Positions 20,823 through 21,419 are shown, counted from the stretch's first letter. The stretch is DNA of 64,000 nucleotides from an uncultured Clostridiaceae bacterium (GCA_946998225.1 CAMPYH010000001.1:388094-452093); one strand, 5' to 3'. Notes: generated by a model from the letters alone, not told the origin. Numbers and translations: made by a program.

Positions 20823-21419
20823 ATGAAACACATTAAGAATTTTTTGATAGGTATATATTTAATAATTGCAATTTTTTCAACAATTTGCCTACTTTCATTA
20901 AATGATTTTAGAACTGTAGAATTTGGGGATTATACATTACTTTATATAGATAAGTTTAGCAAAAATGAGCTTTTCGACAAAGGTGATCTGGCAATAGTTG
21001 AAGAAGCGGAAGATATTAAAGTTGGAGATAAAATTTTTATATATAATGCGTATGATAAAATAATTAGTCCAAGAACAGAAACAGTATCAGAGATTGAAAA
21101 AGTAAATGAAAAAGAAACAACATATCATTTAGAAAATGGGAAGGCTTTATCTTCAAATTATGTTATAGGTAAGGTAAATGGAAGTCGTAAAATAGCATAT
21201 CTAGGTGGAATACTTGCAGCAATGCAATCTAAATGGGGCTTTTTATTCTTTATAGTTGCACCATTATTAATATTATTCATTTATGAAGCTTTTGCATTTT
21301 ATGATGATTTCAAAAAAGAAAAAGAAATACTTACTGAAGAAAAGAAGAAGGAAGTAAAAACTAAAAAAGAAGAAGAGAAAAATCAAGAAGAAATAGAAGA
21401 AAACTCAGAAGAAAAATAA
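20823..21419 (+). CDS. SipW-like pseudo-peptidase (catalytic Ser and His boxes not conserved)
   Basis: Same architecture as the SipW paralogs: N-terminal TM, …FDKGDLAIVEEAEDIKVGDKIFI and …VIGKVNGSRKIAYLGG segments align with SipW, C-terminal TM and acidic tail. However SM(E/K)P is replaced by DKFSKNEL and no THR His box is present. Confidence 0.55.
   Translation: MKHIKNFLIGIYLIIAIFSTICLLSLNDFRTVEFGDYTLLYIDKFSKNELFDKGDLAIVEEAEDIKVGDKIFIYNAYDKIISPRTETVSEIEKVNEKETTYHLENGKALSSNYVIGKVNGSRKIAYLGGILAAMQSKWGFLFFIVAPLLILFIYEAFAFYDDFKKEKEILTEEKKKEVKTKKEEEKNQEEIEENSEEK

Follow-up and report, generated by a model that had tools for sequence, protein, structure and literature searches.

Positions 20823 to 21419 (plus strand) of a 64,000-nucleotide stretch of DNA from an uncultured Clostridiaceae bacterium (GCA_946998225.1 CAMPYH010000001.1:388094-452093, the whole of which is called the window here) encode a 198-residue protein, termed pseudo-SipW, that is a true but very distant homolog of the endoplasmic reticulum (ER)-type signal peptidases (SipW/Sec11, S26B) and that belongs to a family in which their catalytic triad is lost. 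An earlier note, made from the sequence of the window, had described the protein as a catalytically degenerate SipW paralog, and this description is supported by profile and fold homology together with triad loss across a whole protein family. We propose, with middling confidence, that pseudo-SipW is a non-cleaving binder of signal peptides or membrane anchors that serves as an assembly or anchoring factor.

Homology to the ER-type enzymes is established by profile comparison and by fold match. Pairwise BLAST of pseudo-SipW against the active SipW paralogs of the window was not significant (E 0.098 and 0.99), and the relationship is visible by profile and fold methods only. When an alignment of 28 family members was compared with 25 active SipWs by hhalign, the two matched with a probability of 98.2% and an E value of 3.5e-14 over 144 columns, and the match of the family to SEC11A had an E value of 1.7e-4. 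The NCBIfam SipW model NF046067 matched the protein over nearly its full length (residues 37-183 to model positions 38-186) with an E value of 2.6e-6 and 27 bits, below the cut-off of 190. The AlphaFold2 (AF2) model built on the 28-member alignment (mean predicted local distance difference test [pLDDT] score, 82.5) showed a transmembrane helix, a beta domain, and a long C-terminal helix; its top fold match in the PDB was human SEC11A (7p2p_A, probability 1.00), and further matches included the C-domains of LexA and lambda cI, SEC11C (probability 1.00), UmuD, and, at rank 23 (E 0.059), SipA of S. pyogenes. By both the fold match and hhalign, pseudo-SipW has the S26 beta-barrel fold of the catalytic domain, anchored in the membrane at its N terminus. 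A PDB profile search with the 28-member family returned mostly low-complexity artefacts of the tail (Huntingtin) and weak SEC11 matches (E 0.25-0.45); in the control, the profile of the active paralogs matched SEC11C at 3e-12 and SEC11A at 2e-11. Pseudo-SipW had no match to TIGR02228 or to Pfam S24/S26 and missed every curated family cut-off, a Pfam scan gave spurious low-complexity or transmembrane matches alone, and a PADLOC scan gave none.

The three active SipW paralogs claimed for the window were confirmed, each carrying GSM(E/K)P and THR and scoring 83-91 bits against TIGR02228 (cut-off 51.85). They lie on the plus strand at 4312..4908 (paralog 1, 90.9 bits), at 18790..19467 (paralog 2, 90.4 bits), and at 22072..22623, the last of these (S64, H102, and D123) being an active SipW-type peptidase that passes TIGR02228 and belongs to the same operon as pseudo-SipW. 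Pseudo-SipW shares with them, as the earlier note had it, a similar size and a topology of two transmembrane segments, one N-terminal and one C-terminal, which are separated by about 113 residues in pseudo-SipW versus 118-119 in the active paralogs. Its layout comprises a first transmembrane segment with its N terminus inside (TM1, residues 8-26, followed by N27; 20844..20903, from hydropathy and conservation), an extracytoplasmic S26-type beta domain, an amphipathic helix, a second transmembrane segment (TM2, residues 140-158; 21240..21296, likewise from hydropathy and conservation) in which P147 is kept in 95% of the family, and a charged cytoplasmic tail rich in Lys and Glu (21297..21416). 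The claim that all four proteins share an acidic tail was correct in part: that of pseudo-SipW is of mixed charge with an excess of acidic residues (11 K/R versus 16 D/E), but the tails of paralogs 2 and 3 have net charges of +5 and 0. Tail length ranges from 0 to 280 residues in the pseudo-SipW family (median 18), with about half of the residues charged.

Loss of the triad was evident in each of its parts. In the 25 active SipWs, S64, M65, H102, and D123 are invariant and D117 is nearly so (numbering of the 22072 protein), in agreement with Sec11A and with the Ser-His-Asp triad of SipW, given as S47/H87/D106 in PMC8767453 (citing Tjalsma 2000). Where the active enzymes have G-S-M-E-P, pseudo-SipW has F45-S46-K47-N48-E49 (20955..20969); the Ser box is therefore changed, as had been claimed, but S46 still stands exactly in register with the catalytic Ser. 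Across the family the consensus of this box is x-(E/D/N/K)-L-E-P, the Ser column being occupied in 81 orthologs (80 species plus the window) by E in 33, D in 16, K in 7, T in 6, and S in 4, and by Ser in 10% of 252 non-identical family members. Replacement of the His box holds without qualification: S82-P-R-T-E86 (21066..21080) takes the place of x-T-H-R-x, with P83 to E86 aligned there, and the family consensus is (I/V)-x-L-(G/A) with G or A in the His column. No conserved His was found among the 252 members, 7% being the highest His share of any column, and the [TS]HR motif was absent from all 185 full-length family sequences gathered in two homolog searches. The KGDxNNxxD loop is deleted, as seen from alignment gaps at residues 104-107 (E-N-G-K; 21132..21143), leaving D123 of the 22072 protein, equivalent to D122 of SEC11A, without a counterpart.

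A search of the 252-member alignment for an alternative Ser/His or Ser/Lys pair found none conserved, and the reading of catalytic degeneracy survives. Only N27, G116, G128, S136, G139, and P147 are conserved at 95% or more in this alignment, whereas the K137 column holds K in 71%, R in 20%, and Q in 4%, and S110 is kept in 74%. With the Ser, the His, and the Asp loop of the triad lost, pseudo-SipW is predicted to be unable to cleave by the known mechanism. Four defining features of S26B peptidases fail (Ser box, His box, Asp loop, and family cut-offs), and the pseudo-SipW family is best described as an unannotated pseudo-enzyme family within the S26B superfamily.

Sequence constraint in the family is highest outside the active site. 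By an entropy-based measure applied per segment, with active orthologs taken from the same genomes, conservation in the pseudo-SipW family versus the active orthologs was 0.75 versus 0.49 for TM1, 0.56 versus 0.63 for the ectodomain, 0.79 versus 0.55 for the helix and motif ahead of TM2, and 0.69 versus 0.48 for TM2. The outer half of TM1 carries the signature T20-I-C-L-L-S-(Y/F)-N27, with N27 at 98%, T20 at 92%, and an aromatic residue at position 26 in 83%. Ahead of TM2, the amphipathic helix and the signature G128-x-x-L131-x-x-(L/M)-(E/Q)-S136-K137-W138-G139-F140-L141 (21201..21245) were delimited by conservation and by DSSP of the AF2 model, in which a short helix spans residues 127-135 and the next helix starts at 137; S136 is kept in 96% of the family. 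Neither signature, TICLLS-Y-N or ESKWGFL, is present in the active enzymes.

These segments align with parts of Sec11A that hold the signal peptide. The hhalign comparison of the family with SEC11A pairs S46 with S56, E86 with H96, G128 with G150, and L131 with T153, and in the same alignment the TKGDNNAVDDRGLY segment lies opposite gaps and ESKWGF falls at the start of the C-terminal helix. The helix and signature at residues 128-141 thereby align to the bowsprit helix (G150..T153) and the C-terminal helix start of Sec11A. In a 2026 structure of the human signal peptidase complex (SPC) with a signal peptide, three elements of Sec11A flank the h-region: the luminal end of TM1, which carries the gatekeeper W36, the bowsprit helix, and the C-terminal helix. 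They clamp the h-region and gate the transition to the c-region (PMC13385932). Numbering of the SEC11A sequence used agrees with the W36, S56, and T153 named in that paper. The sequence also has H96 and D122. Judged by spacing from the Ser position, family position 26 would correspond to W36. The family has thus shed the cutting residues and hyper-conserved the counterparts, by alignment and spacing, of the Sec11A parts that hold the signal peptide.

Pseudo-SipW belongs to a large family that is maintained by selection. A first homolog search gave 53 clusters at 90% identity, none of which has a recorded name or Pfam domain. In a scan with one genome per species, relatives were found in 137 species, nearly all of them metagenome-assembled genomes (MAGs) of uncultured gut or rumen Clostridia and Bacilli, and a hidden Markov model search of 1.8 billion representatives gave 525 clusters at E<=1e-10 (50% identity), so that the family is at least of that size. 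In 40 genomes with a complete operon the mean Kimura distance was 0.96 for pseudo-SipW versus 1.02 for the adjacent active SipW; pseudo-SipW is under purifying selection as strong as that on the active enzyme. A cluster look-up found the window sequence in the collection and no named member in its cluster, and a literature search found no description of the pseudo-SipW family or of its gene cluster.

The gene is the first of a seven-gene operon (20823..27161). Gene order around it is nearly invariant, as seen when the open reading frames (ORFs) of each locus were compared by BLAST with the proteins of the window: a divergent homolog of 19533..20687 is followed by pseudo-SipW, a homolog of 21421, an active SipW, and homologs of 22661, 23340, 24377, 25614, and 3175. 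A 21421 homolog lies directly after pseudo-SipW in 74 of 77 evaluable loci (median gap, about 0 nt), and every one of the 77 has, no farther than 2.5 kb away, an active SipW that retains Ser, His, and Asp. In the window the gap to the next gene, which had been given as 2 nt, is in fact 1 nt (TAA-T-ATG at 21417-21423). A distant member of the family (P0181, locus L081) keeps pseudo-SipW and the 21421 homolog with no SipW ahead of the 22661 homolog; the sole SipW of this locus lies 6 kb downstream.

The product of the neighboring gene (21421..22020, plus strand) is a secreted beta-sandwich protein and, by AF2 fold and signal-peptide motif, a candidate TasA/CanA-like fiber subunit. The earlier description of this gene as TasA-like is plausible by fold class and signal-peptide motif only, and not by sequence families. 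The protein carries a SipW-type signal-peptide motif, T-Y-(A/S)-x-F-x-S; as in SipW-dependent signal peptides, those of the orthologs end in a conserved T-Y-A-x-F-x-S. In the AF2 model (pLDDT 75) a beta-sandwich follows a disordered stretch at residues 29-44, and the fold matches, all with low template-modeling scores, are to cohesins, CanA of archaeal cannulae, Gram-positive pilins, and the TasA fiber (8aur, E 0.012). The protein had no Pfam or PDB sequence match and no sequence-level link to TasA or camelysin. Its homologs were collected by profile search, a single-sequence search having given 2 proteins.

We propose that pseudo-SipW binds, without cutting, the signal peptide or anchor and the cleavage region of the operon's TasA-like subunit or subunits, the translationally coupled 21421 protein being the first candidate client. 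It would thereby act as a membrane platform that holds, anchors, or hands over its client: a subunit or growing fiber would be kept tethered, in the orientation needed for donor-strand assembly, up to its release by an active SipW, and the charged cytoplasmic tail may link this platform to cytoplasmic parts of the machine. A chaperone or scaffold role of this kind, which the earlier note had suggested, is favored by strict synteny, purifying selection, the hyper-conserved clamp-like segments, and the precedent of SipA. SipA, a homolog of signal peptidases that is catalytically dead and has kept its peptide-binding cleft intact, is indispensable for pilus polymerization (PMC4049620), and for C. 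perfringens BsaA a model has been put forward in which oligomers are anchored in the membrane by an uncleaved signal peptide until SipW cleaves it (PMC11580942). The holding proposal would fit both.

Several observations weigh against this proposal. The binding of a partner by pseudo-SipW is inferred, and it is from sequence alignment and spacing that the conserved motifs are matched to the Sec11A clamp. The window protein itself carries a Ser (S46) at the catalytic position, and two polar residues, S136 (96%) and N27 (98%), are conserved. The 21421 protein is TasA-like by fold class alone (template-modeling scores, 0.3-0.37), mirror-tree analysis favors the TasA-like proteins over the active SipW just weakly, and the presence of a McrB-like ATPase in the operon means that the overall machine may work otherwise than TasA systems do. 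In the mirror-tree analysis, the 21421, 22661, and 23340 proteins co-evolve strongly among themselves (partial correlations, 0.68-0.76), and pseudo-SipW shows partial correlations of 0.34-0.38 with these three versus 0.21 with the active SipW. All of the pseudo-SipW values are modest (0.21-0.38), suggestive at most, and do not decide the choice of partner.

The main rival, which we regard as possible though on the whole unlikely, is that pseudo-SipW is a non-catalytic subunit of a hetero-oligomeric signal peptidase, paired through its transmembrane segments with the active SipW two genes downstream, whose specificity, timing, or stability it would tune as the accessory subunits of the eukaryotic SPC do. 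The constant presence of an active SipW within 2.5 kb (77 of 77 loci) agrees with this arrangement, as does the peak of conservation in the two transmembrane segments, a typical mark of helix-helix interfaces, and the fusion of SipW to another operon protein in some lineages implies that the peptidases act inside a larger complex. Yet the transmembrane segments of the active SipW are themselves poorly conserved (0.49 and 0.48), which is unexpected for the interface of a fixed heterodimer, the active SipW has the lowest partial correlation of all the operon partners (0.21), and L081 keeps the pseudo-SipW gene with no intervening SipW, although another active SipW lies 6 kb away. The other rivals are less likely. 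In B. subtilis, the C-terminal tail makes SipW bifunctional (Terra et al. 2012, as summarized in PMC8767453): independently of peptidase activity, its last 20 residues switch on matrix genes on surfaces. A corresponding signaling or regulatory role for the charged tail of pseudo-SipW, which reaches 280 residues in some lineages, seems improbable to us. The tail is of low complexity and is conserved neither in sequence nor in length (0-280 residues), and it is the membrane and juxtamembrane parts that show high conservation; a function borne by the tail predicts the reverse.

That pseudo-SipW is still a peptidase, acting through unconventional residues such as S136, S110, or S46 with another base, is very improbable. 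S136 is conserved at 96% beside K/R137, and S46 of the window protein is in register with the catalytic Ser, but the family offers no conserved base (K, R, or Q at position 137, and His in at most 7% of any column), Ser is found in only 10% of the S46 column and 74% of the S110 column, the Asp loop is deleted, and S136 and K137 are adjacent at a helix junction, an unlikely geometry for a dyad. The remaining explanation, a decaying and functionless duplicate, could be drawn from the loss of all catalytic residues and from the lack of a Pfam or NCBIfam family annotation, and we give it next to no weight: 137 species and at least 525 clusters carry an intact ORF, which has invariant motifs of its own, diverges as slowly as the active enzyme, and holds a fixed operon position with tight coupling. 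A decaying pseudogene is ruled out by these conservation data.

Pseudo-SipW was compared with several known systems. SipW of B. subtilis and the ER-type enzymes (S26B; Sec11A/C; TIGR02228) have the same fold and the same N- and C-terminal transmembrane topology as pseudo-SipW, which like SipW is encoded beside TasA-type fiber genes and retains the structural motifs GDL and GD-I as well as Ix-G ahead of the last helix; unlike in SipW and Sec11, conservation in pseudo-SipW peaks in the transmembrane segments and not in the active site. SipA (LepA of S. pyogenes; PDB 4n31) likewise has the fold of a signal peptidase but lacks the catalytic residues, lies within a surface-fiber operon beside the subunit genes, and has been proposed, as we propose for pseudo-SipW, to bind a component and not to cleave it (PMC4049620). 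The two differ in descent, SipA deriving from P-type Ser/Lys S26A enzymes and pseudo-SipW from ER-type Ser/His/Asp enzymes (best match, SEC11A), and no sequence relationship was detectable between them beyond the shared superfamily. They also differ in setting, because SipA serves covalent pili built by sortase whereas pseudo-SipW sits in a TasA-like operon with active SipWs, its conserved neighbors being TasA-like proteins, SipWs, and an AAA+ protein and not a sortase-pilus operon with LPXTG pilins. Pseudo-SipW has, in addition, a second, C-terminal transmembrane helix and a cytoplasmic tail that SipA does not have. Functional parallels without homology are offered by the rhomboid pseudoproteases (iRhoms and Derlins), membrane proteins that have retained substrate recognition from an intramembrane or juxtamembrane protease and apply it to client transmembrane segments (PMC7618786) and that are eukaryotic and of unrelated fold and family, and by TapA of B. 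subtilis and CapP/BC1280 of B. cereus, which are operon-encoded, non-enzymatic helpers of TasA-fiber nucleation or anchoring (PMC10151520; bioRxiv 10.1101/2024.02.27.582368). TapA and CapP/BC1280 are secreted and are TasA-like or unrelated; they are not signal peptidase derivatives.

Further features of the operon were read from the sequence of the window, which has a base composition of about 25% G+C. The pseudo-SipW ORF starts at an ATG preceded, at a distance of 5 nt, by the Shine-Dalgarno sequence GAGAGG (20812..20817), and it is a real gene. A consensus scan of the divergent intergenic region found a promoter-like site, TTTAAA-16-TATATT with TG ahead of the -10 element (20766..20793, plus strand), which is weak support, since such sites are rarer in the region than in its shuffles. 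A terminator-like hairpin (27212..27235, plus strand, sequence scan) closes the operon. Between the active SipW and the last two genes, 22661..24344 (plus strand) encodes two membrane-anchored or secreted proteins of 217 residues (22661..23314) and 334 residues (23340) that co-evolve tightly with the 21421 protein; the 217-residue protein is a distant TasA-like paralog with a faint match to the TapA model (E 2e-4). The last two genes (24377..27161, plus strand) encode a cytoplasmic protein of 392 residues (24377..25555) and a membrane-anchored McrB-like AAA+ protein of 515 residues.

The AAA+ protein (25614..27161) is the most conserved of the cluster (BLAST E = 0 in all loci) and has an N-terminal transmembrane segment, the Walker A sequence GISGTGKTS, PDB matches to McrB (E 0.005), and a PADLOC candidate match to PDC-M26A (1e-36). 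In most genomes its gene is followed by a homolog of 3175..4284 carrying DUF2357, which we take to be the N-terminal domain of McrC, and the 25614 and 3175 proteins would then be a membrane-anchored McrBC-like pair in a fiber operon. Comparison of window positions 3175..10291 with loci L001-L080 showed that the window carries a circularly permuted version of the cluster: homologs of 3175, 4312 (sipW1), and 5158 follow the AAA+ gene in most genomes and lie 20 kb upstream in the window, where the AAA+ gene is followed by the terminator and a putative dprA-like gene (27337..28353). In three Bacilli MAGs (L077:2292-4280, L078:6637-8580, and L079:6636-8576), an active SipW of 646-662 residues directly follows pseudo-SipW, and its cytoplasmic C terminus runs on into a homolog of the 24377..25555 protein (E 3e-11 in L078, the locus checked). 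Joint action of SipW and the 24377 cytoplasmic protein is suggested by this fusion. The MAG of Clostridiales bacterium W1P7.002 holds two complete clusters on separate contigs (L052 and L061), each with its own pseudo-SipW.

Upstream of pseudo-SipW, the divergent gene (19533..20687, minus strand) encodes a 384-residue protein with a Rho_N/HeH-like motif (E 1.6e-5) that could be a regulator or a nucleic-acid-binding component; homologs stand upstream of pseudo-SipW in 58 loci and have grown to about 1,000-1,300 residues in some. In 12 related genomes an additional class of SipW-like paralogs, absent from the window, lies between the sipW2 homolog and the divergent gene (L002:3873-4583, L003:4030-4752, L024:4547-5125, L027:4204-4767, and 8 further loci). 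Catalytic loss in this class is mosaic, with S, T, M, L, A, or E in the Ser column and H, E, S, R, or A in the His column, and (E/Q)SK(I/V)TT before TM2 is reminiscent of ESKWGF; by these sequence features the class seems to be a second pseudo-peptidase lineage that arose later within the same system. Positions 10328..18736 encode a protein of 2,802 residues that looks like a giant beta-helix surface protein; it has a hydrophobic segment at the N terminus and dozens of short repeats rich in Gly (…IYGGGN…G…). Many loci have a homolog of it upstream of the pseudo-SipW operon. The 328-residue product of 7334..8320 has a SipW-cognate signal peptide (TIGR04088, 19.2 bits versus a cut-off of 19) and a composition rich in Thr, Ala, Val, and Gly, unlike its neighbors; its homologs stand in for the 22661 homolog in L070 and L074, and it is probably the major fiber subunit. 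Farther upstream, immediately ahead of the cluster, 1281..2947 encodes a sortase (1281..1934; Pfam Sortase, E 2.6e-21) followed by an SH3-domain membrane protein. The class C model matches this sortase best, below threshold, and the gene lies 19 kb from pseudo-SipW, outside the conserved synteny.

A broader and doubtful idea is that pseudo-SipW is one transmembrane coupler of a nucleotide-driven machine, encoded by a cluster of about 24 kb that is conserved in many uncultured low-GC gut Bacillota, for the energized assembly of donor-strand fibers. In such a machine, several TasA-like subunits and the beta-helix protein of 2,800 residues would be assembled or extruded under the control of several membrane and cytoplasmic proteins, namely, the three active SipWs, a signal-peptide-holding pseudo-SipW, the SipW-associated cytoplasmic protein, and the membrane-anchored McrB/McrC-like AAA+ pair. 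If true, this energized pathway would differ from the chaperone-free TasA, ABP, and cannulae systems.

To our knowledge, signal-peptidase-derived pseudo-enzymes are known from one lineage, SipA of the streptococcal sortase pili. Pseudo-SipW adds a second case, of independent origin and of ER type, that is linked to TasA-like fibers instead of sortase pili. Its conserved N27, aromatic residue at position 26, L131, and S136-K-W-G-F yield the testable idea that a signal peptidase scaffold has been reused as a non-cleaving signal-peptide receptor. Furthermore, the family marks a locus for a surface structure that lacks annotation, is widespread among uncultured Clostridia and Bacilli of the gut, and bears on how gut bacteria with reduced genomes attach to their hosts or partners.

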